Of a stretch of DNA of 64,000 bases, positions 1 through 27,557 are shown piece after piece. The notes below the pieces were generated by a model that saw only the letters and a list, made by a program, of their open reading frames with translations, did not search any database and was not told the origin of the DNA. The translations under genes were made by a program, and so were the position numbers. Every line of letters starts with the position of its first letter. Positions within the stretch are counted from its first letter, which is position 1. The stretch is from Hydrolagus colliei (lineage: Eukaryota): positions 126,480,001 to 126,544,000 of the forward strand of contig CM068742.1 in assembly GCA_035084275.1 (NCBI GenBank), written 5' to 3'.

Positions 1-460
1 GAACGAGCAAGTGCATTAACCATATTGCTGAAATTGACAGATTTTCCAAAAGGATATAGCACATTTATGTTTTTTCCCTGAAATGTAAAATAAACATGTA
101 AAATAACATGCAAATTGCTTGGATAATTTACATAAATAGTAAAGCACCGAATTACAAGTACTGTATGCAGGAAGAACCATGGAATATTAAAATGACATTT
201 AAAAAAATGTTAATATGGAAAGACACCGACTTATTGAACCTCCTGCTGTAAGCAAGATAATTCATCGTAACTCCTGCAGTGTGTATCCTGCTCAAATGGA
301 AATTTTAAAGGTACAATGTCTTCCTGATAAAGTGTTTGCAAACCATTTTTCCTTGTCTTGTGAGCAGCATTGTTATATAATTCACATCAAAATGGAAGTG
401 GGTCACCTTTGCTGCAATCTCAATCCTCTTCTGTTGTCACCAAAACAAAAAAAAAGGACC

Positions 461-593
461 CAAAACGCAAAATACTGCAGATACTGGAAATCTGAAACCG
501 AAACAGAAATCACTGAGGAAACTCAACAGGACTGGCAGCATCCATGCAGAAAGGAAAGTGAGTCAACGTTTATTCACTTTCCTTTCGTCGAAA
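461..593 (-). mobile_element. Penelope-like terminal-repeat fragment with degenerate hammerhead core
   Basis: Same sequence family as 5355-5496 and 27415-27557 (aaaatactgcagat.ctggaaatctgaaac...ggcagcatc...agtcaacgttt); minus-strand core reads tCGACGA...tAAAcgTTgact, i.e. mutated. Confidence 0.7.
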
Positions 594-970
594 AAATTAC
601 CAACCACATTTCTCATAAAGATTTTTCCTTTTAAAATTTCTTCCAAATACTTATTAACTGACCAAATCTATCCAAAATAAAAATAAAGCGTTTTAAAAAT
701 TGTCCCAAAGCTGATCACCTCTATAGGTTAAAGGGGAGTGGGGATTATGTCTTTAAGAGCTGCAGAAGGCATTTAAATGTTTTAAGACATTCTCCTGAGG
801 AGATAGGCAGTATGTAAATTGTACTCTGTTCCTTGACACAAGGGCAAATTTGTTGCATGGTTTATTCCTGAACATTAGGGAAGATGAGTATCTATCAAAA
901 AAAGTTTATTCCAATTCAAAGTAGCCTTAAACATTATGTATTTATTTGTTTTTGAATTATTTGGATTATT

Positions 971-1273
971 GTGGAGTCCTGTAGCTCAATGGGTAGAGCA
1001 CTTGTCTCCCAAACAAGTGACCTGTGTTTGATTCCTATCAGGGTGAGAACTTGGAAAAGTTTCCTCACTCCACATACTTGATAATAATCCCTCGAAAGAA
1101 AAACAATAATAAATTTGTTGCTTCAATCCATCACTTTTTATGGCACACTGCTGTGCACAATTGGTTGCCACGCTTCGCCCACAAATATACAGTTAATTCA
1201 CTGTACAGTATATTCTGAGAAGTGCTCTGAGACATCTAGTAGCCATGATGCTATATCAAATGCAAGGATTATT
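971..1273 (+). mobile_element. tRNA-headed SINE, short subfamily (Deu-like core, L2-type tail)
   Basis: Head gtggagtcctgtagctcaatgggtagagc with A-box and B-box-like gtttgattcc; core ggcacactgctgtgcacaattggttgcc; tail gctatatcaaatgcaaggattatta; many copies in window. Confidence 0.9.
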
Positions 1274-1372
1274 ACAACAACAACAGCAAAAACAAAATTA
1301 CATTTGTGTAGCGCCTTTCATGTCAGGAGGACATCCCAAGGTGCTGGACAGTTACGCTTCAGACCCGAGCTG
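1274..1372 (-). mobile_element. L2 LINE 3' terminal fragment
   Basis: (CAA)n tail followed by aattacattt...agcgcctttcatgtcaggaggacatcccaaggtgctg, the reverse complement of the L2 3' stem-loop. Confidence 0.8.
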
Positions 1373-1494
1373 ATGATTACTTGATGATTATTTGATGAAG
1401 GATTATTATCATCTTTGTTCAATAGTTTAGCATTTTAAACTAAGCAGAAATATATCTTTGAATTTCTTTGGATGCATTATTCAATTATAAACAT

Positions 1495-2560
1495 TACAAC
1501 AAACTACATAGCACCTTTCACATCATTAGCACATTTCAGTGAACTGGACAGTGAAGGATTTGGATGAGAGCATGAGTTTGGGATCAGGAGAGGTGGAGGG
1601 CAGGGAGGATAAGCATAGGAGGATAACCAAAGGTGTGGTCAAAGAGGATTGTCTTGAGATGTGCCTTGAAAGAGGCAAAGGAGGGAGCGAGTTAAAGGAA
1701 CTGTAGAATGGAGTTCCAAAGCGTGGGAGCAGAGAGGCTCAAGGCCTCACCGCCAATGGCTTCATGTGGAAGTTGATCCCACCTGTGGATAATGTCACCA
1801 GGAGACAGCATATACAAGTTGAAAAGGAGGGGACCAAGGACAGCATCCAGAGAAATATCGCATGAGACAATGAGAGAGCTGGAGGAGAATCTGTTTGTGG
1901 AGACAAATTGGTGCCTATATGAGAGGTAGGATCTGAACTATTCAAAGACAGAATCATGAAGGTTGAGGTAAGAGGAGAGGTGGAGAAGGACAGAGTAGTC
2001 AAGAGTGTCAAAGCCAGCAGAGAGGTCAAGGAAGATGAGGAGACAGAGGGAATCCCAGTCATAGATGGACAAAATGTCATTCATCACTTTGACCAAAGCT
2101 GTTTCTGTGCTGCAGGGTTGATGCAAGGAATGGTGGGAGAGCAAGGAGCAAAACCGGGAAGCAATAACTTGTTCCAGGATCTTGGCAAGGAAAGAGAGGT
2201 TTGAAATGAGGCAGTAATTGGAGATCAAGGATGGTCTAAGGAAATGTTTTGAGGATGGGTGTGATTATGGCTATTTATTAGGGAATGGCAATGGTGCCAA
2301 TGGACCAGGAAAGATTGATGATATTTGAGAATAGACGGACAAGGAGGTGAACTGGGAGGTAAGGAGAAGGGTTGGGATGGGGTTAAGGGAGCAGGTGGTT
2401 GATTTCTTATGGACTACAATGGTGATGAGAGTGGAGTGGGAGACAAGGTTTGAAAGTGTGGACGGAGGGATAAGTAGGAGCAGGAGTATGAAGGGGAGAT
2501 GGGTGGGCTAACAGTTGGAAGGGCAGAGGCAGCTGAGTGGATTCCCTTGAAATTGGTTTT
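1495..2560 (-). mobile_element. Degraded L2 LINE (3' end plus RT region)
   Basis: Minus-strand translation ISNLSFLAKILE...STETALVKVMNDIL...LIFLDLSAGFDTLDYSVLL is typical L2 reverse transcriptase; L2 tail near 1500. Confidence 0.85.
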
Positions 2561-2894
2561 GAGAAACTAAAAAGCAGTTCCTCGCAGTTAGAGTTGGAAG
2601 GATTACAGGGAGTTTTATTCAAATCCTCAGTAAATCTATTGACTAAATATTTGTTGATGCAAGCCAAAGTGTTAGACAAAAATCAATGGAATAAAGTTAA
2701 CCAGCATTGCAGCAGGAGCAATTGATTTGGACTTTTTCATGTTTTCTCTTTGGAGACATAAACTGGTTTATTCATGAAACTAATATCAAAGGCTGCTGAT
2801 GCTGTAAAATTGTGCACACAAGACTCCCCCTATAAACACAAAATGTTGGACATGTACCTTAGTTATAGGTTCCTCCATGATAAAAAAAAACATC

Positions 2895-3330
2895 AAAAGA
2901 GGGAGGTTGGCCATCAGCATGGTTGAAGAGGAAGGTTTTCAGGTGGGATTTGAACAAGTGGAGAAGGACTAAGGCACAGTGACTGAGGGTGAGTGTTCCA
3001 GAGTTTGGGAGCATGGTAGCTGAAAGCACAAACTGCAATGGTGGGGTGGAGATGCAAGGGACAAGCTGGAGGCCAGTGCCAGTTGAGCGGATAAACCAAG
3101 TGGTGGATTGGGGAGTGAGATGGTCAGAGGTAGGGAGATGCCAGTAAATTTGAACACGAGTGGGGGATCTTGAAGTCAATCCATTCAGCGATGGGAAGCT
3201 GTGGAGCCAGACCAGAACTGGTGAGATGTGGGTATGGAATTTGGTTAGTGTGCAGTTTGCAAAATTTGGAATGAGCTGGATATTTTGAATGGTGAAGCTG
3301 GGGACACAGTGATGAATGCATGTGAAACGA
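2895..3330 (-). mobile_element. Degraded L2 ORF2 C-terminal fragment
   Basis: HISPVLVWLH, AFSYHAPKLWN and FKSHLKTFLF motifs in minus frames. Confidence 0.8.
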
Positions 3331-3789
3331 ATTGGCAGGGGCTTTCTCCCTTCCCCTGGAATATAGATTAAGCAGTTAAATATCACTAATACGCAGAATG
3401 TTTTTTCAAAAACATTTCTCAGTTCATCTGGAATCATACGCTGACTAGGTTGAGGACATGTCAACACAACCTTATTTAATTGATGAGACAATGCAGGATC
3501 GATCAAGCATGAAAATATTTGAGGATTACAATGGAGTTGTCTAGACATGCCATGAATGGCCCTGCAGTTGTGTATCAAATGTAAGTATTATTATTATGAA
3601 TTGAAATGACTGTTTCAGGTTGAAGTCAAGTTTATAGTCTGGTACGCTTGCTTGCTATTGTTGAATTTGTTTGCTCTGAAAAAGATAGTCGATTGTCATC
3701 CCATGGCCTGCTATTATTGATCTATGTCAGATATGCCAATGTTCACTGACTTTTTATAAGTGACATTAGCCAGGAATCCACCTTTGATC

Positions 3790-3895
3790 TCTTACCTCTG
3801 CATGAAAGTCGATGTGAGGCAGACCAGAATACTGTTTGGATTCCCCATTCACCATTTGGGTGCAAGCAGAGAGATATAATTGGTTGTCATCCGCA
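3790..3895 (-). mobile_element. L2 RT fragment
   Basis: Minus strand encodes ADDNQLYLSA, matching L2 [10 protein letters not shown]. Confidence 0.6.
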
Positions 3896-3919
3896 CCATT
3901 CCCTGTCACAAGCTTAAAA

Positions 3920-5070
3920 AGGCACACTACTCTAACATCATTCTGGAGGCCAAAAATAATTCCAAAATCCTATTCTCCACTGCCACCACCTCTGCCATGT
4001 GCCCCCTCAAACACCCTCTATCATAATATCCAACAGTAAATGTGAAGAGGTCATGGACTTTCTTCTCTCCAAAATTGACAACATTCAAAAAGCATCAACT
4101 TTTTGCCCCACCGTGTCACCCACCACAACTACTATTCTGTCTCCCTGATTCTCCCCATACTCAGTTCCTTCCATGGCCCCCATCCTACATTCATTTAACC
4201 CCATCTCTCTTCCCTCCTTCTCATCCACCTTTTCCACAATGAAACCTGCCACCTCTTGCCTCGACCATTGTCATCACCCACTTCGTTAAAAAACCTACCC
4301 CCAATCCCTCTAACCTCAGCCACTACCTATTTCAAAGTGCCTATATAATAATAATCCTTGCATTTGATATAGCACTTTTCATGACTCCTAGACGTCTCAA
4401 AGTGCTTCACAGAATATACTGTAAAGCAAGTTGAGTGTGTTTTCGTGAGTGAAATGCAGCAGCCAATTGCATACAGCAGTGTCCCACAAACAGTCATGGA
4501 TTCAACATGACCAATTTATTATAGGTTTGTTTTGGATGGATTATTATTAGGCATGTCGAGTAAGGAAACTTGCCTAAGGTTTCGCCCTGACCTGCCGGGA
4601 TTTGAAACACAAGTCTCACGCTTGTAAGGCGAGTGCTCTAACCACTGATCTATAGGATTCCACTTTGTGGAGTCCTGTAGCTCAGCCCTTTCTCACAAAG
4701 GTTCTGGAACACATTGTTTCCAACAAACTTTGTGCACACCTCTCCCTCCACACCCTACTCCAATCCCTTCAGTGCAGATTTCCCTGCCCACGGAATAGAG
4801 AGTACTTGTGAAAGCCACAAATGATGTCCTGTGTGACCAGGGCTGCATCTGCCCACTCATGTTCCTGGTCCCCTCCGTTGCATTCAACACAGTTGATCAT
4901 GCCATTCTCCTCCACCGTCTGTCCTCCATCATCCACCTCAGTGAGACAATATTTGGTTTGAGGCCTACATTACAAATGGCCAGCACTACATTTCTGCTAA
5001 TTGTTTTGCCTCTCATTTCTGTGGGGTGCCCCAAGTTTCCATTCTTGGCACCCTTCTCTTCATCTTCTTT
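3920..5070 (+). mobile_element. Fragmented L2 ORF2 interrupted by a SINE
   Basis: C-rich L2-like sequence; KATNDVLCDQG...AFNTVDHAILLHRL resembles the L2 RT. Confidence 0.7.
4346..4663 (-). mobile_element. tRNA-headed SINE, full length, short subfamily
   Basis: Reverse complement of the SINE from the ataatccttgcatttgatatagc tail to the ctaaccactgatctataggattccac head. Confidence 0.9.
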
Positions 5071-5255
5071 GTGGAGTCCTGTAGATCAGTGGTTAGAGCA
5101 TTTGCTTTACAAGCAAGAGACTTGGGTTGATTCCCAGCAGGTCAGGGCAAAACCTTGGATCTTGGAGAAGTTTCCGTACTCCACATGCCAGATAATAATC
5201 CCTCAAAACAAATGATAATCAATTGGTTATTTTTCACGACTGTTTGTGGGACACT
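5071..5255 (+). mobile_element. tRNA-headed SINE, 5' half
   Basis: gtggagtcctgtagatcagtggttagagc...gactgtttgtgggacac. Confidence 0.85.
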
Positions 5256-5354
5256 TTTGTATCCTTCAAGACACTCCTTTTTGACTGTGCCTTCAGCCTC
5301 CCTGCTTGTAATTTTGCAGCGAAAACCCCAAAACATGAACGCCCATGTTACTCT

Positions 5355-5393
5355 GAGTTCTGACGAAGGGTTGTGGACTTGAAATGTTGACTT
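5355..5393 (+). ncRNA. Minimal type I hammerhead ribozyme motif (possibly decayed)
   Basis: CUGAnGA and GAAA boxes, UH site, stem I gagtt/gactt, short stem II, and 2-nt stem III with CpG decay (cg to tg). Confidence 0.65.
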
Positions 5394-5496
5394 ATTTTTC
5401 CTTTCTCCATAGATGCTGTCTGACCCTCTGAGTGTTCCCAACGATTTCTGTTTTTGTTTCAGTTTTCCGGCATCTGCAGTATTTTACGATTTTGAT
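5355..5496 (+). mobile_element. Penelope-like terminal-repeat fragment carrying a hammerhead motif
   Basis: gagttCTGACGAagggttgtggacttGAAAtgTTgactt followed by ...agatgctgtctgacc...gcatctgcagtatttt; three copies in window. Confidence 0.75.
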
Positions 5497-7009
5497 AGTG
5501 CCTTATCATGTCATTAACTCATCCCAAAGCATTTCACAGAATAATTCTGTAATATAAATGGACTGTATTCTGTGGGCAAAACGCGCAAGCCAATTGCACA
5601 CAATGTGCACCAAACTGTCATGATAATTATTACAGAGGTAATTATTTATGACCTTGATAATCTCCCTATTTGCATTACTGATTTTTGACCTGCTTTCAAC
5701 TTCAATTGATAAGCTGTGGGTTTGCTAAACCAACAGCCATTGACGTTTGATCCTGAGGTTCAGATCTTTTTAGATAATGAGATGAATATCTCCTCTTTTT
5801 CTTAGCTTCAAAGGAACCTGAATAAGTTTGTAAGGTCTAACCCTTTCTGAGCAGCAAAAAGATAACTATTAAAGCAACCCAATCTCCTTCACACTACTTC
5901 ATCTCACTGGGTTCACAATAGCAATTTAGAATAAAGGCTGCTGTGCTGCACAGCATCACTTTGCATTAATAAATGCCAATTTAAATACACACTTAGTCAT
6001 CTCAAAAATAGAAAACTATGAACACTTAGAAAAATAAATCTAATCTGAGTACATTTTAAAATAATTTTCATTTCCATGCATTTTCTATAAGATTCTCTAT
6101 TCTCGATTTGATCAATTCATTTCACTTTGAAAGCTGCATCTCTTTTGTTCTCTTCCAATTTGCATGTCTGCTTATGGCATCCCCCTCCCCCACACGTCAT
6201 GTTTACTGATTCCCATGCCATTTCTCTGATGATTATGGTTCCAGTGAAAAATCGGTGTCACTACGTACATCAATGAAAAGTGAATGTCAGGAAGGAAACA
6301 ACATCTAAACCTATCCCATCATAAAGAAGAATAATTTTGTATCCAGTCTCCTCAGCATTTCCTGTTTCAGTGAGTTATCCTAATTAATTGTCTTTTATTT
6401 ACCTCCTGCAGATTAATACTGATCACATATTGTATAATCCTTTTGTACTTTACATATTCTATTTCATTCTCATTTTATTTATTACAACCATATATTTCAA
6501 GCAATATTTGATGTTTTGCATCAGTCTGTGATTCATAATTCATTCAGATTCTGTCTTACATTTTGCCTCTATCCAGCTCTCATTTACATTCATATTTTTA
6601 GCACATTACGTTTTAAAAATTTATTTTCATATTCTACCTTCAGCTTAATACATTTGAAATGTGTGTTGAAGAAAAATAGTAAAACTTGTATTTGTTATGG
6701 TTCCTTATCACAGTATTTAGACATCTCAAAACAGGATTTTACTGTGAAATGTAGTGACTATGTGCTTGTAGGTGAACACAGCAGCCAATTTGCACATCAT
6801 AATATTCCACAAACAGTCATGGAAAGAGTGATCATTTAAAAATAATGAGGTGAATGGACAAACTGGATCTCTTTAATTGTTAACTCATACAATCAGTCCA
6901 TCAGGATCCAATTCTCTAATCTTATTGGTGCCTTCCTCCCTACCCTTGCCCTATATCCCTTTTTCCTTTTTATTCTGTTATGTGGATATACTTATCCCAT
7001 TTAAAAATC

Positions 7010-7195
7010 AGTAATGGCAAGCTATAAAGTTTCAGCTGGTTAGATTCCAGCAGTACCCTAATGCATGAGGTAGGAAGTCCAATTTTAACAATCTCCAGAA
7101 TTAGGTAAGCATGCATCCCTCCAGAGAGAGATTGCACATCCAATTCTAACAATCTATCTCTGGAGTTTCCATATGTAGGTGCAATACATTCTCAT
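7010..7195 (-). repeat. Unclassified dispersed repeat, copy 1
   Basis: Reverse complement aligns by eye to 59600-59790 (e.g. gggtactg.tg.a.tctaaccagct.aaact..atagcttg). Confidence 0.7.
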
Positions 7196-7549
7196 TTTGA
7201 TTCTCATTTTGATTTAGATACTCTTAAAGCATGTTGATGGTTTTCTGAATGTGTCAGACAATCATCTGAACAATGAAAAGTATTCTTCTTCAATCAATGT
7301 TTCTAGTAAGGTATGCCCATATTTTAATAATTCTCTTGGAAACAAAAGAAAACCTAACCACTTCCTTTGTGTTCTTTCTGGTAATGATCTTTAATTTATA
7401 TTTTCCTGTTGCCAACTGACAGTTGAAATAAATTCTCCCTATTTACCTAATTAAAACGCCTGCTAATTTTCAATGTCTTATATCAAGTTTTCTCTCAATC
7501 TTGCCTGTTCTAATGGAAAAACGTTTTGTGTTTTTTCCCCAGTTCAAGC

Positions 7550-8037
7550 TTTAAGTTGATCCTCGTCCTCACTTTCAAGGCCATTCTTCCCCTGCCAATC
7601 TCTCTGACCTGCAGTCTCTCTGTCAGCCTGCCCATCCCCTCCGTTCAGCGGGCTCTGGCCTGCTCCATGGGTCCCGCCTGAACCACCCTACCATCGGTGC
7701 TGAAAGCCTTCAGCGTCTCTGCCTGCACACTCTGGAACTCCATCCTGCGATCCGTTCGCCTCACTTCCTCCTTCAAGGCCGGTCTCAAGATCTTCCTCTT
7801 CGACCGTGCCTCCTGCTGCCCTCCTAACTTTCCCCCCTTTCCTACTTTCTGTCGCCCTGTCCCTACCCCAACCCAAGATTGGGTCCCAATCTACAACAAC
7901 AACAACTTTGATTTATATAGCGCCCTCCATGCCAGACGGCATCTCAGAGCACTTGGGTCCCAAACTAACTGTTCAGCGCTTTGGGACATCCTCCCAACGT
8001 GAAAGGCAGTCTATAAATTTAATTTTATTGTTGTTGT
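7550..8037 (+). mobile_element. L2 LINE 3' end with nested 59-bp insertion
   Basis: AFSVSACTLWNSI...FKAGLKIFLFDRA; 3' stem-loop and ttgttg tail at about 8030. Confidence 0.9.
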
Positions 8038-8519
8038 CATTTCTCATTAAGAATACCTGTATTCCTCTTTAAAATCCCATCTTTCTCCGATCATATTGAT
8101 ATAACACTTTGGCTTAACTTTTATAACATTCAGGAGAACATAATGCTCCATTCTATGGACAGAGATAGTCACACTGAGACAAACAGGTTACATAATAAAC
8201 ACTAAATTACTTTTCTTCTTTATTAGGTATTTTAATTGTACTTACTCTAACCTCATTTATCCATGATTTAGTGTCTGCTGCTTATTGAGATTCCTCACTT
8301 TCTCCCATCCTAAGATCTCACATTTCACACACCAGCAAGTGACTGATTACAAGGCCTGACAGCATTGTACTTGAACTGGCTGTTGGCGATTTGAGAGCAG
8401 CACAGATTGACTCGTCCCTTTTCTAAAGACATTCTTGACCTTTCCTCAGTACAGCACATTTTTCTCAATACCAGTGTTTACCCAGCTTACTTGCTTGCCT
8501 CTGGGTCCGGAGTTTGTGT

Positions 8520-8700
8520 GTTCAAATCTTGCATCGGAAATTATAGTCTGGCTGTCACTTCAGTGCGAAGTGAGATGAGCACTGCATTGTCAGAGGTCCT
8601 GTTAAGCAAATGAAATGTTAAACGTATGTCCCATTTGCAAATCTATATGTGATCACAAAAGATCCAAGGACTCTTATTTCAAAATAGAATTGTGGCTTCC
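8520..8700 (+). mobile_element. Old DeuSINE/SacSINE-like fragment
   Basis: gcactgcattgtcagagg...tgaaatgttaaac...aaaagatcc resembles the copy at 52875-53300. Confidence 0.5.
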
Positions 8701-10855
8701 ATAGATACCTCCAAAAGCACCCAATAGTTTAAGGTGTTTCAACATGATGATTCAGCGTAAAAAGAAAGTTCCTTCTTTAGTTATAAAATCAATTATAATC
8801 CTTGCAATTTTTATAGCCCCTTTCACATCAGAAGATCATAGTAAAACCGATCATAAGATTTACTGTAAACTCAGAAGCAAAAGTGAACCAACTCAAGCAA
8901 GCTGACACTTTGCATATTGTGTACTCTTGAATCTGGACAATCTGTGGGCTGTTACCCTTGTAACTGGGCAGGTATGTGGAAATAAATCTAACCTTGTTAT
9001 TGATGGTTGATGGGGCCACAAATTCAACTAACTGGTATCAGTCTTGTTTTAATCTTTCCATGAATGGACAATGCTGTAGGCAGATTGGCTGTTGGGTTTC
9101 TCCAAAATGCACACAGTCACTCCACTTTACAATTACCTCCTGTGAAGTGCTTTGGGACGCTCTCCAGATATAAAAGGCTCTATACCAAATGAGGTCTAAT
9201 AATATTATTTATTATTTAGTTCATCAACACTCAAAGAAAAGGTGAATCACCAAAACATAATATGGTTTCGCCTTGATAACTTCCATGCTTTGTACTCAAT
9301 TTCATCAGTTTATACGTCTCTTGGCATTTGCTCAGTGACATGATGCACTTGGAGTTGACTTATCACTGCATCCATGATGAAATCAGCTGTAACAGCAAGT
9401 AAGAAGAATGTAACGATGTATATGAAGTCTGGTCCATTTAATTCTGCCAAGAGTGCTGAGGCAATCAATACACATTCGCTGGGACAGGGACACTAATCTT
9501 GTGCAGAGCCCAGTGACATTGCAGCTGAAAACAAACTCCCAATAGAGTCCTTGAAGCTCAACACTAGCTTTATTGTGCTGTTGTAGTCCTACACCTTGTG
9601 CAGAATTATCCTAAACAAACACCATCCTAAGCAAGCAATTAAAATGATACAATGTACATCCTCAAAGCGAGGGGAATGGGAATATGATTTTTTAGTTTTG
9701 GGGGGGATTGGAGTCATGGTTATCGTTTCCCACAATAGATTAAAAAAACAGGTAACATGAAGCATCCCCAAATAGATTAGAAGTTATCAAAGGATACAGC
9801 ACAATTTTAGGTTTTCACTGTGAGCCCAATCCAAATTTTCAAATCAGATCATCAAACCCCAATATAAGGGAAGTTTATTACATTTGTTAGGCAGTGACTT
9901 CCCTTTTTTCTAAACTTTTACATTTAAAGGTATAAAATATTGGATAGAAACAGTACTATACATTCAATTGATTCAGTTTTAGTTTGGATTTTGTCCAATG
10001 TGTTGAGCTTATACAAAAGAACTCCACTAATTGGTTGTTAGTCAATAGGCGGAGTATGTATCCAGTGGTAATAAGCCCTTTAAAAAATTCATTTTAAAAC
10101 ATAATAATAATTTTGTAGCTCACACATGTCTGCCTAACACATGTAGTACACTGCTGTGTGAAATTGGCTAATACATTTCGCTACAAAATATATAGTTAAT
10201 TCACTTTACAGTGTATTCTATGAAGCACTTTGTCTCGGAGATGTGATAAAGCGCTATATCAAATACATACCTTATTAGAATGATAATTAAGTTTACTTTG
10301 TATAACACAGCTGCTATGCTCCCGATCTCTGGAACTCCTTCCCTTTATGCCTTTGTCTCACTCTGCTTTATCTTTATTTCAGTCATCTTTCCCCTCCCCT
10401 GAGTCCCATCCACTCTTGGGTACCTAAATAGCATTGTGAAATGCTTTGAGGTGGCATCCCAACAGGGCAGGCACTGTAAATATAAGTTGTAAAGATTATT
10501 TATCATTTATTTATCATTTATTGAAATAAAATGATCAATAATATTAAACTGAACTCGGGCAATTGGTTTATTTTCTGAAAAATATATAATGTGAAGTGAA
10601 ATGCTGAGGCACCCTCAAAAATCTTTGATTTCGACACTGTGTTCAAATTGGCAGAACTATAACAGTAGTGAAATAGGTAATATTATATGACTGAGAATCT
10701 TGATGAATCCATCAACTGGTCTTTATTTTTTTTTAAAACACAGCCTTTTGTGGTGGCTAATGTGGTTTAGTACAGTGCTGTGCTATACAGTAATACAATA
10801 CAGTTTAACCATTGATTCTTTCAATGGTGAGTTTCTAATCAGTATGTTAGATGCC

Positions 10856-11604
10856 TAGGGTCCGGCGATATATCGATATATCGCTAAAATCCGATATAAT
10901 TTTCATATCGATACGCCGATATAGGCATTTGAAAAATATCGATATATCGAAAAGTGGAAAATCGGAATGCGCGCACACCGAACTGCAAGACCCAGAATGC
11001 TCCTCTCTACACACAATGCACAGACCGAGGTGCAAAGCCGCCATATTGTATTCATAGTCCTCGAATACAATATACAGGTATGCAAGGGGTGGGGGGGGGG
11101 GGGGGGAGAGACGTCTGGGTGGGGGGTGAGTGGTGAGGGGGAGAGAGATAGCTGGGGGGTGGGGGGAGGGAGACAGCAGTGGTGGGGGGAGAGAGACGGC
11201 TGGGGAGAGGGGGAGAGAGACGACGGGGGTGGGGGTTGCGAGAGAGGGACGGCGGTGGGCGGGGGGGTGGGGGGAGAGACGGGGTGGATGTGATAATATA
11301 CAGATAGATAGAGATGGGGGGGATGTGAGAGAGACACAGACAGAAAAACACACAGATGGAGAGAGTGAGAGACACAGAGAGAGAAAGATATTTACCTCAT
11401 GAGGAGATAGGCCCCAGGGTGCACGCGCACCCTGAATGCGCGCGCACCCTGAATGCGCACACACCTGGAACGCGCGCACACCCCGAATGTGCGCGCACGC
11501 GCATGCTCAGTACGAAAAACCCGAAGATATCGAAATTTCAGTATATCCTGATATGAGCCCATCGATATATCTAAATCGGAAAATTTCCATATCGACGGAC
11601 CCTA
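10856..11604. mobile_element. Non-autonomous hAT DNA transposon (749 bp)
   Basis: 16-bp TIR tagggtccggcgatat / atatcgacggacccta (1 mismatch); perfect 8-bp TSD tagatgcc at 10848-10855 and 11605-11612; CpG-rich subterminal atatcgat repeats; no transposase. Confidence 0.95.
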
Positions 11605-11629
11605 TAGATGCCCAATACATTTTTGAAAT

Positions 11630-11850
11630 ACAGTGCTTGAATTGGTGCTGGACAACAAGCCAGGGTAAGTAAGTGACTTACAGGTCAGAGTTTATCAAGA
11701 AACTAGTGACTGTAAGAGGTTAAATGCTGAAATGGAGAGAGAAAAGGAGTTTACCAATAGCAAGGTATAGATCAAAAATGGAAAATATTTACCAGTTATT
11801 TTGGAAGGTTAAAAACAGATTAGCCAATTGGTTCTCTTTATCTGAATCAG
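11630..11850 (+). mobile_element. Old CR1 endonuclease-region fragment
   Basis: Translates VLELVLDNKPG*VSDLQVR, matching the CR1 ORF2 motif LDLVLxNEPGQVSD. Confidence 0.55.
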
Positions 11851-12530
11851 TGTTGGGATCCTCAAATTTTTTTCAATGGAAAGCAATTTTAGTAGTAAGC
11901 TGCTTTAAGCACAAATGATACTCAGCTGTGCATATCCCCAAAGTAATCACAAGTGCTGGTATTGCTCCTTAATTATTCTTTGTGATAATAATAAATATAT
12001 GTCACCCATAGACAAATGTGTGAGGGTTTAGGCATGTGCAATGACTGAAATGATGAGGAAACCCTTGTTGTTTCCTCTCCTTCCTGAGTCATCTCATTAA
12101 GTGATCTCTGGAGTCTGAATTCAGTAAATCTAAACCATTTCATTAGCTGTATTGAATTGTGAGCTAAGCAAATACACCATGCTCTTAGATATTTATAACA
12201 CAATATAAGAAGGGAGGCTTTCTGGAGTTACATGTGAAATCTGAAGTTTATTGGACCAAATGAGAATGTTTTCATACTTAAAATGCAGCAGATTGTATAA
12301 TTTACTTAAGCAGTACAAATATCCAGTTTAATGATAGACGGATATAAGACAAACAACCTTAATCATGCTACACTGACAAATTTTATTAGATGATTAAAAA
12401 AAAAATTTAAAGATAGCTTTTTATCCTTGGCTAAGATTATTAGAGGGTTACTATGAGTTGTGTTCTCCATGGCATTCAGGCTGGTCATATACAATATATA
12501 TTATCACAGCCGAGCCTGATCTACTCATCC

Positions 12531-12835
12531 TGGAGCTCTTGCAGCTCAGTGGTTAGAGCACTCGCCTTACAGTGCGCCTCGTGAGACCTATGTTTGAATC
12601 CAGACGGATCAGGGCAAAACCTTGAGCGAGTTTCCTTACTCCACGTGCCTAATAATAATCCGTCCAGAAAATACAACAATAATAAAAATTGGGCATTTTC
12701 AATCTACAACTGTTGTGGAACACTGCTGTGTGCAATTGGTTGCCATGTTTTGCCCACAAATATACAGTCAATTCACTTTACAGTATATTCTGCAAAGTGC
12801 TTTGAGACGTCGATAAGTGATTTTTATAAACTGCA
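12531..12835 (+). mobile_element. tRNA-headed SINE, short subfamily
   Basis: ggagctcttgcagctcagtggttagagcactcgcc...gctttgagacgtc. Confidence 0.9.
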
Positions 12836-13879
12836 GCTATAACTGTTTCACCATTGTGTCTGTTCTCGATATAACATCTTCTAGCATTTCTCACAAGGCT
12901 TACAAGAAGGCTTGTCTGTCACCTGATAAGATACCCTTCATGCACACCTGCCTTTCTCTTGCAAACCTTTTGCTGACATTTCTGGGATTTATAATTGTTA
13001 CATGTAAATAATAATCCCAATTTGCTGAATATCACACAGAGAGAACTTATTGTATTTTCAATCTAATATTTGGGACAGATCACCTCTCTCCCTCCTCCTC
13101 CTTATGCAGAATCATACTCCTGCCATTATTTTCTCAGCTCGATCGTACCATTCTTTTTCATTGTGAGTGAATTCGTAATTTAAATTGTAGCCAATGGATT
13201 TTTTTTAACTTAACCAAATCATTTGCATAATCTTATCTCTGAAAGTGTTTGGATGAATCATTTCCTTGGCATAAAAAACAACTGTTAATCAAACAATGTG
13301 AAGCCAAATGATTGCAAATTCTACCCAGGTGATAGTAATCTCATATTTTTTAATTTTCAAGCAGTGAATATATCAGAACATGAGTAACCGTACACTGAAT
13401 ATTCATTTCAGATGCCAAGCAAGTCAGGTTTAAAGATTAGGAATGGTTGATAGGTAGTGTGTCAGTAATGGTCATTTTAAACTCATTCAAATCCCTCACT
13501 TCCTAACACCTCCCTATCCTCCAACCTACTTGTACCCAACTCCTCTGACCAGCTAATACAGATCAGCTAAGTGCTCCTGGCTTCATTGCGCCACCATCAG
13601 CCACTTTCAGCCACTATGTCCCTAAACTCTGGAAACACTTGCTTCAATCTCTCCACCTCACCTCCCCTTTCATCTATCATTAAATTCCATATCACCGTTC
13701 TACCTGCGAGTTTAACTCAACAGGCACAGGCCTGCCACTGCCTCAGCCTCTATCCCAAATTCTCTGAAATTTTCTGTTGGGTGCCAATCCAGGGAATGAC
13801 AACCACAACAACAAAATTAAATTCATAGAGCACCTTTCACCTCGGGAGGTCATCCCAAGGTGCTGAAGTGTAAGACTCG

Positions 13880-14020
13880 AAACACACACACCCAAACAAC
13901 ATAGACACAAACATTTAGAGTTGCAGAAATGCCCACGCTCAGAGGCAGTTAGAGAGGCATGCATGAATGCACGTGCACAAAGACACACAGAAACTCACAC
14001 ACATACTCACAGTTACCCAC
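13880..14020. repeat. Degenerate (CA)n-rich low-complexity tract
   Basis: acacacacaca...acacacagaaactcacacacatactcac. Confidence 0.6.
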
Positions 14021-17000
14021 CCTATCTACAGGGCTGACTTCAAACAGTGTGTATATTAGCCTGTCTACTGTGAAGATTTTGGGCACTCAGTGCTGAATGC
14101 TTTCAATTAAAATTAATAAATCGATTAAAATGCAGCTTTTAGCTCCATTTAAAATACATTATGACTACAGCTAATGCCTGCAGCTGCTTCCTAATAAATA
14201 GGAGTGTTTCTGTTTCAATGTCCGGTATAAGTATGCTCCAAGTATCTTCAAATTACTCTTACATCATTACATCTTCTTCCACACAGTGTCTGCAATTAAA
14301 TTCTGATTTCATGATTGAAACAAATTACAGTAGTTTGTAATGTAGGATTGCAGCACCTGGAAATGTCCCATCAATGTTCAAAGCAGAGAGTTGGAAATTA
14401 TGGATGTGGGGATTTAAAAAGGCTATAAAAAATGACTTTGTCTACCTGGCGAATAGGATATCATTTAGGTGTACATTTTTCAAGGTCCAATATCCATAGA
14501 ATGATTGTTAAAATAAATTCTGCAAGAACAAGTTTGGAAAGATTGAGCATATCACAAAGGAATGGAGTCCATTCAAAGCTGCTAATATATTTTGCTGCCT
14601 ACTCTTTATTATTGAAAATGAATGGTCCCCAGCTGTAACATGATCCTCATTGTGCAGTGAGTTTGAGATATTTCTCACACACCGGGTTGCAGCTGAGATA
14701 TACTATAAATGGAAATAACCCTAGGCCTGTCACAAATATAAATACACATTTGCTGACACAATCTGCTTCCTTGGGTGGCATAACCAATTACACTTAAATC
14801 GTCAGATCACCTGGATTGGTTCACTCCTTCCTTGGAACTTGTTCAATTCTTTCAATCATTTCAATCATTGTTCCAAGCCTGAAAGATCATAGAACAAAAG
14901 ATAAGATCACACAGACTCAGGCTGAATCTGACAGGTCCTCATTCAATGTTGTGCTTGTGGACATGTGTCAGCCTGGCTCAGTGGTAGCACTCTCCCTTTG
15001 AGTCAGAAGTTTGTGGGTTCAATCCTGTTATCAGGACATGCAATATTTTCCTTCTCTGGTTCAAGAAGAAGGCAGTAAAGCTAATTCCCAATTTTGAAAC
15101 AATGAACTTTTAGAAACATATAGTTTCATACATTCTATGAATCCTCAGAAACAGATCATTTGTCCCTAATAATCCATGCCAGTGTTCATATTCCCACAAG
15201 AGAACTCACCGCTCCCTCCTATTCCTTTATGAGGTTACACAGAATTAATGTTTAGTCGCAAAAAGACTGACATTTCTTGGCATTTGCAGATTTGGTGATG
15301 GGCATTTTCTACCAATATTTTCCCCTTTTGTATAAATTTCATAATTAATCCTATTATTCAAGGAAGATGGTGGTAATGGGTGCCAGAATCTGGCTATGAT
15401 GGCAATATAAAGAAACATATCTTATGCATGTACTCAGTTTGTGCTGGAATAAAATAACTTACTATTAAATGAAGCAACAGTCATCTCTCCTATTCGTGTA
15501 AGGAAAGGAACTTAAGGTTCTCAATTATGGTCATCACATTGATTCTTGCTTTGAGAAATGTGTAGCACAGAAACTGATTTGCGACACATTATTTCTGCTA
15601 CATCTGCTTTACGAATGGACATTTTCAAAATCATCATCTCTGATTGCTGATGATACATGGTTATGCATGCATGCTTGATGAGATGAATTTACTTCCTCCT
15701 GCCCCCACAGCCTTGGCACAGTGCTAGTCTGAGAGAATCTATGTTCTAATTTAGGACTTCATTTCTCTCAACATGACAGAGTCATTATCATGAAACCACC
15801 TGCACTTGGAAGGTATAGTGATTACTTGTCCCTGCCTTAGTCTCTGTTTCAGTAGTGTTTTGGATCCGTTTGGAACACCTTGACTTTTGGCTTTTTTACC
15901 CGCAATCCACTTTACATGATATTCTGAGAAGCTCTTTGACACTTTATGAAGATGTAATAAGGCACTATATCAAATGCAAGAATAATTTTGTAAAATACTG
16001 AGAGTCTTAATATGTCAACACTTAACATGTTAATGCCTGTGTGCCTTGGTATATCTGCTCGTCAATGGAATTGCAACCAAGGAAATGGGGCAGAATAACC
16101 CCATTATACTTGGGTTGAATTGTTGGTTGACTTTACACATAGAAGTACTGATAATATCAGCTGCTGATGGGATATCCCTTTCATAATTGCACATCGCCAA
16201 ATGCTCTACTTATATGGCTAAAACAAACATCCGCTCAACAATTTGCACCATTAGCACTAACTTTATTAGAAGGCACCACATCACATACTGCCAGTATTGG
16301 GCGCAGTGGAATAAATATTACAGAGATTGAGTGATAAATGAATTAGTGCAAATGAACAAAGGGAGAATTAGATAAGACCTCCGTGCAGGGAGGTGGCTCT
16401 GTTCAGTGTATATTCAACCTAAGGGGTATATGAGAGTTCAGTGACAATGCAATGAAAAGGAATGCCAAAGCTTTCTCTCAGGTTAAATTTATTTATGCTG
16501 GGTAGTGTAGATAGTGTTAATAGAAATCAACATATAGGGTATGTGAAATCACATGACCAGTTAGTAGGGACATGTTGATGAAGATGTTATCAATGGAGAG
16601 TTCCATGTACAGGCCATTGATCACTGTGCTTATAGGAGAAGTACAGCATTACTGTAGTATCACTGACTAAGATGGGTGTACAGTTGTACGCATAGCCTTT
16701 TCTATACCAGCCTCTCAGCTGGAAATAAAATCGCAAATATACCAGAAGAAAGAGTCGTTGCAGCCTGACCACTTAGCAGTCACAAAACTTTCTACAAAGC
16801 AATAAATTATTGAGATTACAACTCCTGAACTTGTTCTGCCAAGCCTTTTGTTTTAACAGTGTATTAAAGAACCTTTCTTAATTCCACTTTAATAATGTAT
16901 TGAATGTAATTGTTTGTTACGGAAATGCACATCAGCTAAATGAAATGCAGAGAAAACATTTGACAAGATACATAAATTCAATTACTTTAGTTTAGTTTAG

Positions 17001-17452
17001 GGAAAACATTGCACAATTATTTTCCGGTGCAACTTTCTTCTAACCTCCAGTAGATTCAATGCATGTACATTTTGTGCCTTTTCCTCCATTAGCTCATTTT
17101 ATTTGGGTAACCTAGCATCTGGCACATGCAAAAGCCCATCACCATGCTTAAGTGTATACAAACCAAACTCACAGTTCCACATATGTGTGCTACCACACAG
17201 AAATTTCCATGTGCTTGGAATGGTATGTACATTATCTGGAGGAACAATGTTTACTTCATTCCAAGTATTTGAATCAGGTTGGCAGACCCAAGATATGGGA
17301 TTCCTTTCCCTGATGACTAGTCTACCTTTCCAAGTCCTGCCAATTAGCTACTAAATACTATTATCTGTCAGAAGGCAGGCTGCTAGTAATAATAATAATA
17401 ACTATTATTATTATTGGTGGACTGCCTTCTGACAGTTAGTTGCCAGAGGTCT

Positions 17453-17840
17453 GTGGAGATCTGTAGCTGAGTGGTTGGAGCGCTTGACTCACAAGCGAGA
17501 GGACCTGGGTTTGATTCCCGGGCAGGGCAAGATGTTGGGCACATTTTCTTACTCTATACACCGCTATTTACCTAGCAGTAAATAGGAACTCAATTGTTAG
17601 TCGATTGGAGGATTGCTTTTCCGGGTATACTAATCCCTTCAAAACAAAAATAAATTTAATTTTTTTTTAAATGGAGTTGCTCAATACACAAATGTTTGTG
17701 GCACACTGCTTAATTGGCTGCTGCATTTCGCCCACAAAATATATAATCAATTCATGTTACAACATATTCTGTCAAGTCTTTGAAATTTTGTCTCAAAGAT
17801 GTGATAAGGTATTATATCAAATGAAAAGATTATAGTTATT
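17453..17840 (+). mobile_element. tRNA-headed SINE, long subfamily
   Basis: Same head and tail as the short SINE plus an extra central segment ctatttacctagcagtaaataggaac...ttttccggg. Confidence 0.85.
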
Positions 17841-20800
17841 GCTAGTCATTTCACCTTGGAGCCACTTTAGTTTGTCATACGTACAATCAGTTCATGTTCA
17901 ATTTTCTTACTGACCCCAACCTGCAGCTAAATAATGGAACATAATAAAAATAGAGAAGCACTATATTTTGTGTTTTCAGTATTCGAGTGTCCAAGGCTTT
18001 GGGACACCTTCCCAACATGAAAAGCATTATAGAAAGGTAATTTCTAGTTGTTGTGGTTGTCCATTTTGAGGAATTAAATTATAGGAAAGACTATGTAATT
18101 AGGATTACAATCATGATTGACCGACACAATCCACAGTCACTCCATTTTGCAGTGAATCCTATGAAGAACTTTTAGATGTCTTCCTATTGTGAAGGTGTTA
18201 AATCAAATGTAAGGTATTATTTTACTTTATGTAAAATGGGGTATGTTCACGACTCAAAAGATGAGCTCCCAGGCATGATGATCTTTTGTGTTAAAATTTC
18301 AAAGAAGCTAAACATGTCTTGCCTTGATGTGATAATTACCGCTGGTAGCAAACGGTTTGACCCCAATTTTTAGCAATGTGAAAAAAATCAGCAATGGTAA
18401 TTATCACGTTATATTTTTTCATCCCTTAACTTTTTTTAAAAAAATCTGTGATTGGTTATTGCAACCCCCATCCCAACCTGTTAAGATGCTTTGCTTCAGT
18501 ATTTGAATTTTGTTTTGATATATACATGTGGGTGGTCACTGGTACTTAGCTGTAGGGAATCTAAAAAAATTGCATTAGTAATTTTAGCCATTAGCAATCA
18601 TTAATATTGGTGATTTGATCATATTGCTGAAATTTGTGGTTATGTCATTTGCCATCAATAATAATTATCACATTGAGGAATGATATTTTATGCCTCATTG
18701 AAATTTCAATATTTAAGTCATGATCTAGTAGAATGGTCGAACAAGCTTAAGGTGCTAAATGGCCTACTCTTGTACCTGCTCGGGTCCCTACCTAATTGTT
18801 CAGCACCTTGGGACATCCTCCCGACGTGAAAGGTGCTCTATAAATGTAATTTTGTTGTTGTTGTTGTTGATTCTATAATGGATATACAGTCATAGGTGAT
18901 GAATTGCGCATTTGTATGAATACAATCTAATACATGCAATAGGTTGCGTGGTATGTGCTTATTGTGCAAATCTCTTTTCCAAAATGTATAATGTGGGTTA
19001 GGCTCAACTTTTATTATGGGTCAACTTTACATTTAGCAAATGTTCTAACTGTTACACAAAAGAGGGTTCCTGCTGGGTCTACTTATCATGTGGATCATGT
19101 TTCAGCCAATGGCCCCTCAGGCACTGCTTCAGTTGCTCCTTATGGTTGAAGGGAAAGTGAATGAATATTGGTCTGTGATTTTCTCAGAACAGCGGCATGC
19201 AGCTGGTTGATCGATTGGTCCCTTTATCCACAGCAGGTGCCTAGAATGTATTTGTGCCACAGAACTTTCAAGCCACAGGGAAACTGGCACAGCAGCCTTG
19301 TGCTGAAATTTGAATTTTGTATCAGGTCAAATCACATAGGATATGTTCACGACTGCTTCGCCAGTCATTTAATTACACTGCTCCCCCTATTCTGCCGATA
19401 TGTTCTAAATATAGCTTTTGATGCTTCTGCCATCATGATACAGCATTATCGTTGTTGTGCATCCATACAGAACCTGCAAGTTTTTCCATCTCCCACGTTA
19501 ACCATGCTGTTTAAGGCTGCTAATGTAACAGCTATCATGGCTGAATTCTTGCAGAGCTATGCTGGTGATTTGTACCAACTAGTAATTGAATTGGCTCCAT
19601 CACTTAGGGCCACACAGTCATCACACAGAGAGAGAGAGAGAAAAGAGCAAGAGACAGTGAGGAGTATTGCATCCTGTCACTACGAGTTGCATTCAAACCC
19701 CAGTCCCCGAGGAGAAAATATAGTTGTGGAAATTGTAATGTGTAAATTGACATCAATAGCCCTAATTAACGCATCATTTGCAAAAAAAACTTATTGTAAT
19801 GAACAAATCAACTGGTCCCCAGTGAGCTATAGGATGGTGCATTCTTTCTCAACACCAATGACAATGGCTGTGTACCAGAGACTTTGTGCGGCTGGCTCAA
19901 ATATGCTGTTGCATTGGCTGACAAATACACAGTCATTATAATTCATAGTAATTGCTGTGCTTCGAGACATCTCAACAATGTGAAAAGACGATATATCAAA
20001 TGCAAAGTTATTTTTATTATTGGACTGATGGTTAGTCGGTTAACGTGGGATACCATAGGATTAACAAGATAAAACATTCAATGCGTTGAATATTATAACT
20101 TCATCAAGTTTAATACATTTGATAATTTAGCACATCACAATTGTACCCATTGTGCCACCACCACTAGGAAACTGCACAGCCACTTCCTCTCTAATAATTC
20201 TTCAACCACTATAAGAAATGCTGCTATCAAGGTTTTAATAAAGTTGTTTTTGCTTGTTGGTGAATGCACAAGGTGGGCAAGAATAATATAAAATAGCTAG
20301 TGACAGATCTACTTGCTTCTAGAAGCTGTGGTTGAAGCAATAGTTTTAATATAGTTAAGAAGAAATTTGATGTATCATTGAGGAGGAGGGCAGGGTGGAA
20401 GCTGATATGGAGTATATACACTGATATGGACATACTGAGCTGAATGGCCTGTTTCTGTGCTGTATTATTCTTTGTAATTCTAAATGACAATTCTATATGA
20501 ACGTGCTCTTATCCATCCGTCTATATAATTCACATCTCTAGCCATGAATACGTTCCATGGCACTTAAAAATGTGCATCCATCTTACTGTGCGCTGTACCT
20601 ACATAATATTAAATAATACCATTTACTTTTAGGTTCAATAGCAATTATAATTCATGTGGAACAATGAATAACGTCTTAATTTTATGTAAAATAGCTTTGC
20701 ACTGGAGGGCAGCAACAGCACCAGCTTTTCATATGAACTATGTCCCAATTTGAGTTTAGTTGCATGCATGAGTGTTGGTATGGTAATTGCAAAATCAGGC

Positions 20801-20914
20801 AGTTTGCTTTTGGCAAACTGGAAAGAATGAAATTGAAGCTGAATTTTGAATGAAGCAATGTAGTGAAGAATTTCAGCCACTTGGAGTTAAAAAAGACAGA
20901 GATGCGGAACATAA

Positions 20915-21335
20915 TAAACTAGGGCTGTATTCTCTAGAGTACAGAAGAATTAGGGGGGATCTTATTGAAACATATAAGATTCTTAAAGGGCTAGATAAAG
21001 TAGACACTGGGGGACTGTTTCCCCTGGTAGGAGAATCTATAACTAGGGGTCACAGTCTTAAAATTAAGGGTCAGCCTTTTAGAAGAGTTGAGGAAACATT
21101 TCTTCACTCAGAGGGTAGTGAATTTATGGAATTCACTACCCCAGAAGGCTGTATGATGCTCAGTCCTTGAACATTTTCAAGGCTGAGACTGATAGATTTT
21201 TGAAAAATAGAGGGATTAGGGGATATGGGTTTAGGGCAGGTAATCAGAGTTAGGTGAGAAGAGCAGCCATGATCTTATTGAATGGCAGAGCAGGCTCGAA
21301 GGGCCGAATGGTCTACTCCTGCTCCTAATTCTAAA
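20915..21335 (+). mobile_element. CR1 LINE 3' end
   Basis: LGLYSLEYRRIRGDLIETYKILKG...TRGHSLKI; 3' UTR gcaggctcgaagggccgaatggtctactcctgctcctaattc. Confidence 0.93.
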
Positions 21336-21609
21336 AAAAAATAATAAGTGAGACTGGCTTAGTTGGGAGTAGATTCACTTTGGAATCAGAAGATTGTTGC
21401 TGCAAAATTTACTTCTGGACTTGGTATCCATATAGCTTATGCTGACCGTCTAATGCAGTGCAGAGACATCAAACCAACGTCTCATCTGTCTGTTCAGGGG
21501 ATGTTAAAGATCTTTTGTAGTCCCTGAAGTCTGTACAAAATGAAAATGAGGTAAAACTCAGTAACCTGGCCATGAATGGCACTTCTATGGCTGTTTGTAG
21601 GACATCTCT

Positions 21610-21640
21610 ATAATAATAATAATAATAATAATAATAGTAG
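21610..21640. repeat. (TAA)n microsatellite
   Basis: taataataataataataataataatagtag. Confidence 0.9.
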
Positions 21641-21669
21641 TAAATAATTGCAGCATCAACTTCCATGGT

Positions 21670-22383
21670 TAATCACTCTACCTCACCGAATCAGTCAGGA
21701 ACCTAGGTGTCTTGTTCAATCCTCAACTCTCTTTTCTCCCCCATATCCAAGCAATGACTCCCTCTGCCTTCCCTCACCTCTCTAATATTGCTTGACTCCA
21801 CCAATACCTTACCCTCAAGGCTGCTGAAACCCTCATTCATGTTTTCATTACATCCCGGCCGGACCGCGCTTGTTGGCCTTCCCAATTCCACCCTCCACAG
21901 ATTGCAGATAATCCAGAGCTCTGCGGCCCATGCTCCATGACCCCATCTCCCTCATCCATGCCCGATTCTGCTGCTCCCCATCATTCAGAGAATCCAATTC
22001 AAGATCATGGTCCTCACATTCAAAGCCCTCCACAGCCTCGCTGCACCTTACAACCTCTACCAATTTGCCCGCGCCCCTCTGCTCAGCAGGCTCTGGCTTG
22101 CTCCATGTGCCCCGCCTCTGCATTGGTGGGTGAGCTTTTAGCTACTCTGCCCTCAACCTCTGGAACTCTATCCTGCAGTACCTCTGCCTTGCCCCCTCCC
22201 TGGCCTCCTTCAAATCTCACCTCAAGACCCTCTTCGATGGTGCCATCGGTCGACCCAAATCCCCCACTTTCCCTCCACCCTCTGTTTCCCCAGCTCGGAT
22301 TTGGAACAATGACTGTCCAGTGCCTTGGGATGTCCTCCTGACATGAAAGGCGCTATACATATGTAATTTTGTTGTTGTTGTTG
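21670..22383 (+). mobile_element. L2 LINE 3' portion
   Basis: L2 ORF2 C-terminal motifs with frameshifts; stem-loop and (ttg)n tail at 22320-22383. Confidence 0.9.
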
Positions 22384-22662
22384 TAATAATAATAATAATC
22401 CTTGCATTTGATATCGCGCTTTTCATGTCTCTAGATGTCTCAAAGCGCTTCACAGAATATAATGTAAAGTGAACTGACTATATATATGTGGGCGAAGCAC
22501 GACCGCCAATTGTGCACAGCTGTGTCCCACAAAGTCATAGATTGAAATAACCAATTCCTTCTTTTTTTAGGGATTATTATTAGGAGTGTGGAGTAAGGAA
22601 TCTTGTCCAAGGTTTTGCCCTGCCTCACGTAAGGCAAGTCCTCTAACCACTGAGTTACTCCA
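22384..22662 (-). mobile_element. tRNA-headed SINE, tail-to-tail with L2
   Basis: taataataatccttgcatttgatatcgcgc...ctctaaccactgag. Confidence 0.9.
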
Positions 22663-22860
22663 CCATGTTAGATCATGGTCATCTACATGATAAGGTGCTA
22701 TATCAAATATGAGGGTGATTATTATTTTATTATTCTTAATATAGCATTTCAGAGTGTGCAGAATTTGGCAACTTGTTTAATCTGATTTTTTACTTTAAAG
22801 CTTGCCGCATGTTTCGCCTTGCTGGAATCCAACCCAGGTTTCTTACGTGCGAGGTGAGTG

Positions 22861-23160
22861 CCCGAACCGCCCCACCATCGGAGGCCGGGCCTTCAGTTTC
22901 TCCGCTCCCACCCTGTGGAATTCCATCCCCCAATCCCTCCGCCTTGTTTCTTCCCTTTCCTCTTTCAAGGCCGGTTTGAAGACTTTCCTCTTCGACCGTG
23001 CCTTTTGTTCCCCCAAAATTATTCGACCTCCCCTACGTGTTTCACCCCTTCCCGAACACTCCCCTCCCAGCTCGGGTCACACGTCTCCTATGCAGCGCCT
23101 TGGGACGTCCTCCCGACGTGAAAGGCGCTTTATAAGTTTAAGTTGTTGTTGTTGTTGTTG
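22861..23160 (+). mobile_element. Young 5'-truncated L2 inserted in a SINE head
   Basis: PNRPTIGGRAFSFSAPTLWNSIPQSLR...; intact CpGs; (gtt)n tail; flanks rejoin as the SINE head gagtg|ttctaatcactgagctacaggactcc. Confidence 0.93.
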
Positions 23161-24955: not shown

Positions 24956-24964
24956 TGTATATTA

Positions 24965-27414: not shown

Positions 27415-27557
27415 ATCAAAAAACCGCAAAATACTGCAGATGCTGGAAATCTGAAACAAAAACAGAAAACGCTAGGAACACTTAGCAGGTCAGGCAGCAT
27501 CTATGGAGAAAGAAAAAGTTAGTCAATGTTTCGGGTCCTCGCCAGCTTCGTCAGAAC
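27415..27557 (-). mobile_element. Penelope-like terminal-repeat fragment carrying a hammerhead motif
   Basis: Minus strand of 27521-27557 reads gttCTGACGAagctggcgaggacccGAAAcaTTgact. Confidence 0.75.

Follow-up and report, generated by a model that had tools for sequence, protein, structure and literature searches.

Metazoan Penelope-like elements (PLEs), including Xena, Poseidon, and Neptune of fishes, carry minimal hammerhead ribozymes (min-HHRs) in their pseudo-LTRs (pLTRs), and solitary min-HHRs left by truncated PLEs occur by the thousand per genome in fishes, the coelacanth, and Xenopus, with 4,000–9,000 motifs reported for the latter two (Cervera and De la Pena 2014, PMC4209133). The insertions of these elements have a characteristic form: the copies are truncated at the 5′ end, may adjoin an inverted truncated copy, and optionally bear a tail of 30–40 bp (PMC8557442). 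For a PLE of Anolis, AT-rich targets, the use of uncut RNA as substrate, and protein-assisted cleavage have been described, with reverse transcription beginning 85–92 nt past the hammerhead cut (PMC11167929). What role the hammerheads play in PLEs is described as still unsettled (PMC8557442, PMC11167929).

Here we consider a hammerhead-like motif at 5355–5393 of a 64-kb stretch of DNA, which we call the window. We regard it, with good confidence, as a worn min-HHR lying in the 5′-truncated 3′ end (a pseudo-LTR piece) of an old Penelope-like element, in a copy that is probably dead and is one member of a large repeat family; the coordinates of all features are collected in Table 1.

Table 1. 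Features of the motif, the repeat copies, and their neighbours in the 64-kb window.
Feature	Position	Strand	Basis and remarks
Stem I, 5′ strand	5354..5359	+	6 pairs here, 2 of 6 G-U
CUGANGA box (5360-5366) and extra A (5367)	5360..5367	+	Sequence; consensus of PMC4209133 Fig. S3
Stem II	5368-5372/5376-5380 (5368..5380)	+	3-nt loop; 3 of 5 pairs G-U in copy 1
GAAA (5381-5384), U-G (5385-5386), UH (5387-5388)	5381..5388	+	Stemless stem III
Predicted cut	between 5388 and 5389	+	Placed by hammerhead convention
Stem I, 3′ strand	5389..5394	+	Descriptor parse
Predicted downstream helix, 8 bp	5411-5418/5468-5475 (5411..5475)	+	Kept in all 3 copies
Copy 1	5356..5492	+	BLAST to copies 2 and 3; likely 3′-terminal pLTR fragment of a Penelope-like element
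Copy 2	27420..27557	-	BLAST; fails descriptor
Copy 3	462..592	-	BLAST; end at about 592
Fold-back in copy 3	549..586	.	19-nt arms, 17/19 complementary, no spacer
Left neighbour: tRNA-headed SINE fragment	5069-5262	+	Rfam, BLAST; outside element
Left neighbour: short piece of another window repeat	5265-5303	+	BLAST; outside element
Right neighbour: 3′ part of the left neighbour's SINE family	5491..5621	-	Abuts the repeat's 3′ end

A worn minimal hammerhead and its chance expectation

The letters at 5355–5393 agree with a preliminary description that had placed a minimal hammerhead there, and, judged on those letters, the motif is a real minimal type I hammerhead that mutation has worn in this copy (copy 1). 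Both min-HHR cores, CUGANGAH and GAAAN-N-UH, are present in that order, and the closing stem I, for which at least 3 pairs are required, has 6 pairs in copy 1 and 4 in the family majority. The boxes, their order, and the pairing given in the preliminary description thus stand, but the stem III of copy 1 is without its palindrome (U at 5385), and stem I, given as gagtt/gactt, pairs as stated in copy 1 but comprises 4 bp only in the family. Only the inner four pairs (5′ side 5356–5359) belong to the family; the outer pairs are private to copy 1, as indicated by the C carried at 5393 in 95% of the depth of family contigs and by the loose contig ends before 5356, which end in C.

To gauge how readily such a motif arises, we turned the min-HHR consensus of PMC4209133 (Fig. 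S3) into a descriptor and ran it over both strands of the 64 kb, where it matched once, at the motif itself. When at least 3 pairs were required in stem I and at least 4 in stem II, any match at all appeared in 1 of 400 dinucleotide shuffles; there were none in 400 at stricter settings, 5 in 400 with at least 3 pairs in stem II, and 57 in 400 once the stem I requirement was dropped. The two boxes alone occur 9 times in the window against 5.4 expected, a number reached by 12 of 100 shuffles and not significant. The covariance-model check suggested earlier gave no match: an Rfam search returned no hammerhead family in the whole window at E ≤ 5, nor did two narrow searches at E ≤ 10, a silence that may reflect the absence of stem III.

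The wear on copy 1 is directly visible. Compared with the family majority, its motif has four C-to-T changes, three of which (5372, 5380, and 5385) fall at CpG sites of the majority, in a window with a GC content of 40% and a CpG observed/expected ratio of 0.33. Positions 10.1–11.1 form a G-U pair in copy 1 versus G-C in the majority, the predicted energy of its stem II is +0.3 kcal/mol, and its minimum-energy fold and predicted folds are not those of a hammerhead. C-to-T decay after insertion would have left G-U pairs in stem II and at the palindrome, and on these fold predictions copy 1 is probably no longer able to cut; unlike the substitutions, the loss of activity is a prediction.

An abundant repeat family with a better-preserved majority

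The motif sits at the 5′ end of a dispersed repeat of about 135 bp, of which self-BLAST finds three copies in the 64-kb window, as had been stated before. These are 78.5–85.3% alike over their 3′ part, and copy 1 alone passes the min-HHR descriptor. In copy 2 both boxes are kept, with the 5′ strand of stem II, the palindrome, and stem I disrupted; in copy 3 an inverted copy of downstream sequence sits in place of the stem II region. The stem III palindrome is kept in copy 3 and lost in copies 1 and 2. The fold-back in copy 3, centred on that palindrome, is the sole structure of its kind in the window and has no counterpart in 20 mononucleotide shuffles; it is either an inversion made at insertion or a later template switch. 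Across the three full copies (n = 3 only), differences in the stems amount to decay, with no compensatory changes seen. Farther downstream, the predicted 8-bp helix is a candidate protein-binding or priming element; shuffling gives it no significance (best z-score −1.04), and none of 22 predicted pairs shows a double change.

The surroundings of copy 1 are themselves built of repeats. We discounted a 12/14 direct repeat at 5280/5491 as a possible target-site duplication, since both halves lie inside other repeats. The window is rich in fragments of tRNA-headed SINEs and LINE-like elements; the longer LINE ORF relics, at 37191–38078 (−), 53878–54696 (+), and 61849–62661 (+), belong to a set that we take to be L2-like and CR1-like. 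tRNA-like SINE heads (Rfam tRNA, 28–44 bits) lie at 975–1046, 5075–5145, 17464–17521, 28840–28911, and 50926–50997, and 3′ parts of this SINE family, possibly akin to CmiSINE/SacSINE1 of PMC5499810, occur many times. Long hairpins at 49234–49326 and 17356–17441 gave weak scores to miRNA families, below the gathering thresholds.

A broader view of the family comes from four of seven listed sequencing runs, whose contigs were placed on 5200–5620 at 80% likeness (8678, 9433, 7955, and 2221 contigs per run, SINE flanks included). The runs represent the source organism and a relative (organism B), and one of those carrying the family is labelled a fish gut metagenome, which indicates a fish as host; the repeat types would suit a cartilaginous fish. 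In three runs the ratio of the depth summed over the repeat to that of the locus-specific contig comes to about 34,000–36,000 at 5411 and 4,200–5,300 at 5379, a figure that is not a copy number and can be read only as thousands to tens of thousands. At this rough estimate, the high copy number proposed in the preliminary description is borne out.

Majorities drawn from these contigs are biased toward copies resembling copy 1. They depart from it precisely at the positions where copy 1 is weak. Majority C is found at 5379 (95% of the depth in run X1), 5380 (71%), and 5385 (69%), all positions at which copy 1 differs, and the consensus of loose contig ends has C at 5372. That loose-end consensus (158, 165, 111, and 46 contigs in the four runs; all loose-end figures given here are from among 24 entries listed, with 1153 further ones) has the stem II GGGUC/GACCC and an intact palindrome. 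The family majority accordingly shows five Watson-Crick pairs in stem II, a 4-bp stem I, G10.1-C11.1, and a C-G palindrome at 15.2-16.2; these last two min-HHR features are lacking in copy 1. All of these family features are ones that Cervera and De la Pena (PMC4209133) name as emerging from outside their own descriptor. As a sequence, the majority is a textbook min-HHR, and it fits the published PLE min-HHR better than copy 1 does. Its stem II folds at −7.2 kcal/mol, accounting for 78% of the ensemble; as a whole the majority 30-mer is no more stable than shuffles (z −0.26; 63 of 200 shuffles fold as well).

Contigs of organism B also reach both junctions of copy 1. One spans the 3′ junction (5456–5620) with 3 differences, and another enters the 5′ end by only 23 letters, against the 31 that the tool demands; because both junctions are thus represented, the insertion would predate the split of organisms A and B. 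In addition, 89, 76, and 23 contigs (X5, X6, and X7) run at loose ends behind 5440 into a shorter 3′ variant, which suggests a subfamily with an internal deletion.

Insertion signatures and the origin of the repeat

The boundaries of the family are observed directly in the contigs. Around copy 1, family depth rises at 5350–5364 and drops about 15-fold after 5485–5499, and loose contig ends accumulate ahead of 5356 and after 5485. A fixed 3′ end lies near 5485–5492, beyond which 415, 404, 319, and 95 contigs continue into mutually unrelated T-rich flanks (agreement 0.48–0.49); a second 3′ end, about 26–33 nt before the main one, appears at 5459 in 106 contigs of X1 among the entries listed. Measured from the predicted cut, the two insertion 3′ ends are about 70 and 100 nt downstream, and copies span the cut site. 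At the other end, part of the copies share upstream sequence (122, 140, 104, and 33 contigs in the four runs, agreement 0.41–0.51), whose motif shows no enrichment in the window (6 occurrences against 4.9 expected). With such an extension beyond 5356 common to some copies, the unit is probably an incomplete element; the family of about 140 bp announced in the preliminary description is abundant and non-coding, but probably not the whole element.

Contig depth and loose ends together display a fixed 3′ end with 5′ truncation, the first signature of PLE insertion. The second, an inverted 5′-truncated copy adjoining the 5′ end, appears among the joints: of 27 in all, 15 are listed, each resting on 1–2 contigs per run, and 9 of these 15 change strand. 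Eight of the nine link 5352–5358 to varied sites within 5389–5452, and no letters are listed between the joined parts. Here the sequence before 5356 lies outside the family; on that ground we infer the direction of these joints and read them as head-to-head inverted truncated arms.

From these signatures and the majority min-HHR we infer a Penelope-like parent whose copies arose by target-primed insertion with an early stop. The parent's RT/GIY-YIG protein would have nicked AT-rich DNA and started reverse transcription at either of two points, some 70 and 100 nt past the place of ribozyme cleavage; synthesis would often have ended early, and at times an inverted truncated arm would have been added. 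For copies that run across the cut site, the template would have been RNA that was uncut or had been re-joined. Within the parent itself, two hammerheads of a tandem transcript may have paired through their palindromes to form a stem III, and such dimers may have cut weakly or with the help of protein.

The Penelope derivation proposed earlier is thereby upheld by the min-HHR consensus and the insertion signatures, but an RT/GIY-YIG ORF near the copies was not found. Such an ORF is not expected beside the copies, because they are truncated. Six-frame Pfam scans of 1–14402 and 20001–34402 (28.8 of the 64 kb; an insensitive scan with no positive control) gave no family in any of the 12 frames, and a scan for PLE protein motifs gave no match over the whole window and 38 metagenome loci. 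Behind copy 2, at about 27130–27410 (−), a frame interrupted by one stop opens with an ATG shortly after the 3′ end of the repeat; its middle loosely resembles what we take to be a motif of PLE ORF N-termini, and a loose likeness to CxxC/YIG is present on the other strand. This frame has no Pfam match and occurs once in the window, and its PLE-like resemblance may well be chance.

Of all the features, only the clustering of strand-switch joints at the stem I edge seems to us to merit a follow-up. One idea, which we hold to be unlikely, is that a hammerhead still uncut and folded on the template RNA determines the points at which reverse transcription halts or changes strand. Were this true, insertions and inverted arms would begin no more than about 3 nt from the 5′ edge of stem I, the fold of the ribozyme would be a boundary signal with a role other than self-cleavage, and that signal would have spawned a non-autonomous PLE mini-element of about 135 nt with tens of thousands of copies. 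Such a mini-element can also be considered in its own right: a unit that descends from the end of a PLE, has a 5′ start of its own at the stem I edge, and is copied in trans by PLE protein in the manner of a SINE. The joints starting at 5352–5358 and the very high abundance of the repeat would fit this, and non-autonomous PLE derivatives have been described (PMC8557442; bioRxiv 10.64898/2026.07.22.740005). Nevertheless, we think it unlikely: an upstream extension is common to copies in all four runs, the unit is without a promoter or tRNA head (the Rfam tRNA matches lie elsewhere), and the start of the reference copy, at 5356, biases the places at which boundaries appear, so that the clustering at the stem I edge may partly reflect that start. 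A mini-element can coexist, as a subfamily, with the Penelope fragments that we favour.

A type I hammerhead inside a non-coding repeat also recalls the non-LTR retrozymes, and copy 1 could be a solitary monomer of a tandem retrozyme that spreads by self-cleaved circular RNA; monomers of this kind are dispersed genome-wide in Xenopus, and retrozymes are present in the sole cartilaginous fish sampled (bioRxiv 10.64898/2026.07.22.740005). The retrozyme-like character raised in the preliminary description, together with the search for tandem copies that it suggested, found no backing: there is no tandem unit in the 64-kb window, and among the 15 of 27 joints listed none runs from a 3′ end to a 5′ end. 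Moreover, the flanks behind the 3′ end are mutually unrelated, and the motif is minimal, as opposed to the canonical hammerheads in the retrozymes of PMC7229834. We therefore consider this origin very unlikely.

It is still harder to credit that copy 1 has been maintained as a functional ribozyme, for instance by exaptation to the processing of a host transcript. Both boxes and the UH are intact, every stem change still permits G-U pairing, and organism B shares the insertion; yet a C-to-T change opposite G inevitably yields G-U, copy 1 no longer has G10.1-C11.1 or the palindrome, its stem II is unstable, there is no partner hammerhead nearby, and among thousands of copies many retain the boxes by chance. 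Finally, the notion that the repeat represents the tail of some unrelated LINE or SINE, its hammerhead likeness being coincidental, for which the missing Rfam match, the chance occurrence of the boxes alone, and the missing PLE ORF could be cited, is highly improbable in view of the rarity of full descriptor matches in shuffles, a family majority closer to the ribozyme than copy 1 even in features outside the two boxes, and a 3′ end without poly(A) or simple-repeat tail.

Comparison with described elements

Searches of viral, prokaryote, and metagenome collections brought up no member of the family. A literature search found no paper on a PLE hammerhead of cartilaginous fishes, although the supplements of bioRxiv 10.64898/2026.07.22.740005 may list the family, and a search on four short family motifs found no publication. 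A pattern scan of metagenomes yielded 38 loci, none similar to the repeat beyond the pattern. Four of the 38 (L008 and L017 at 3001, L024 at 18, and L036 at 898) pair over 4–5 bp in stem I and are apparently unrelated min-HHRs, and a good stem II or stem I is seen in further min-HHR-like loci (L003, L007, L010, L019–L022, L031, and L033–L035). These motifs probably come from animal or other eukaryote DNA; no PLE ORF was found beside them, and the two ORFs upstream of the motif in L017 have no RT or GIY-YIG Pfam match. Two pattern scans of viral collections gave 0 matches each. Of two scans of prokaryote genomes, one gave none and the other 73 matches, all in prokaryote records by title, which we judged from those titles to be chance.

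Copy 1 alone carries little weight, being one worn relic of a known kind; the family, by contrast, documents on a large natural scale the way in which a Penelope-like element inserts. The kind of element was described in 2014 (PMC4209133), and the family itself is outside the 56 examples of Fig. S3 in that work, from which the decayed copy 1 also departs. Its abundance may exceed the motif numbers given there for coelacanth and Xenopus, a comparison that rests on our rough estimate only. With the animal non-LTR retrozymes the family shares a type I hammerhead and a non-coding repeat linked to PLEs, whereas the definition of retrozymes calls for tandem units and circular RNA (PMC7229834, bioRxiv 10.64898/2026.07.22.740005), and tandem units are not seen here.

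The likeness to the PLE min-HHRs of PMC4209133 extends through the whole motif: a short stem I, CUGANGA with one extra base, a stem II of about 5 bp closed by G-C, GAAA, two palindromic bases and UH, in numerous and mostly solitary copies. Closest in its insertions is PAc, the Poseidon element of Anolis carolinensis (Frangieh et al. 2024, PMC11167929). The ORF of PAc starts inside stem II, whereas for the repeat no such start is established, and the 3′ ends of PAc lie 85–92 nt past the hammerhead cut, as compared with about 70 and 100 nt here. At the same time, both have two end sites and AT-rich flanks, and in both the copies span the cut site.
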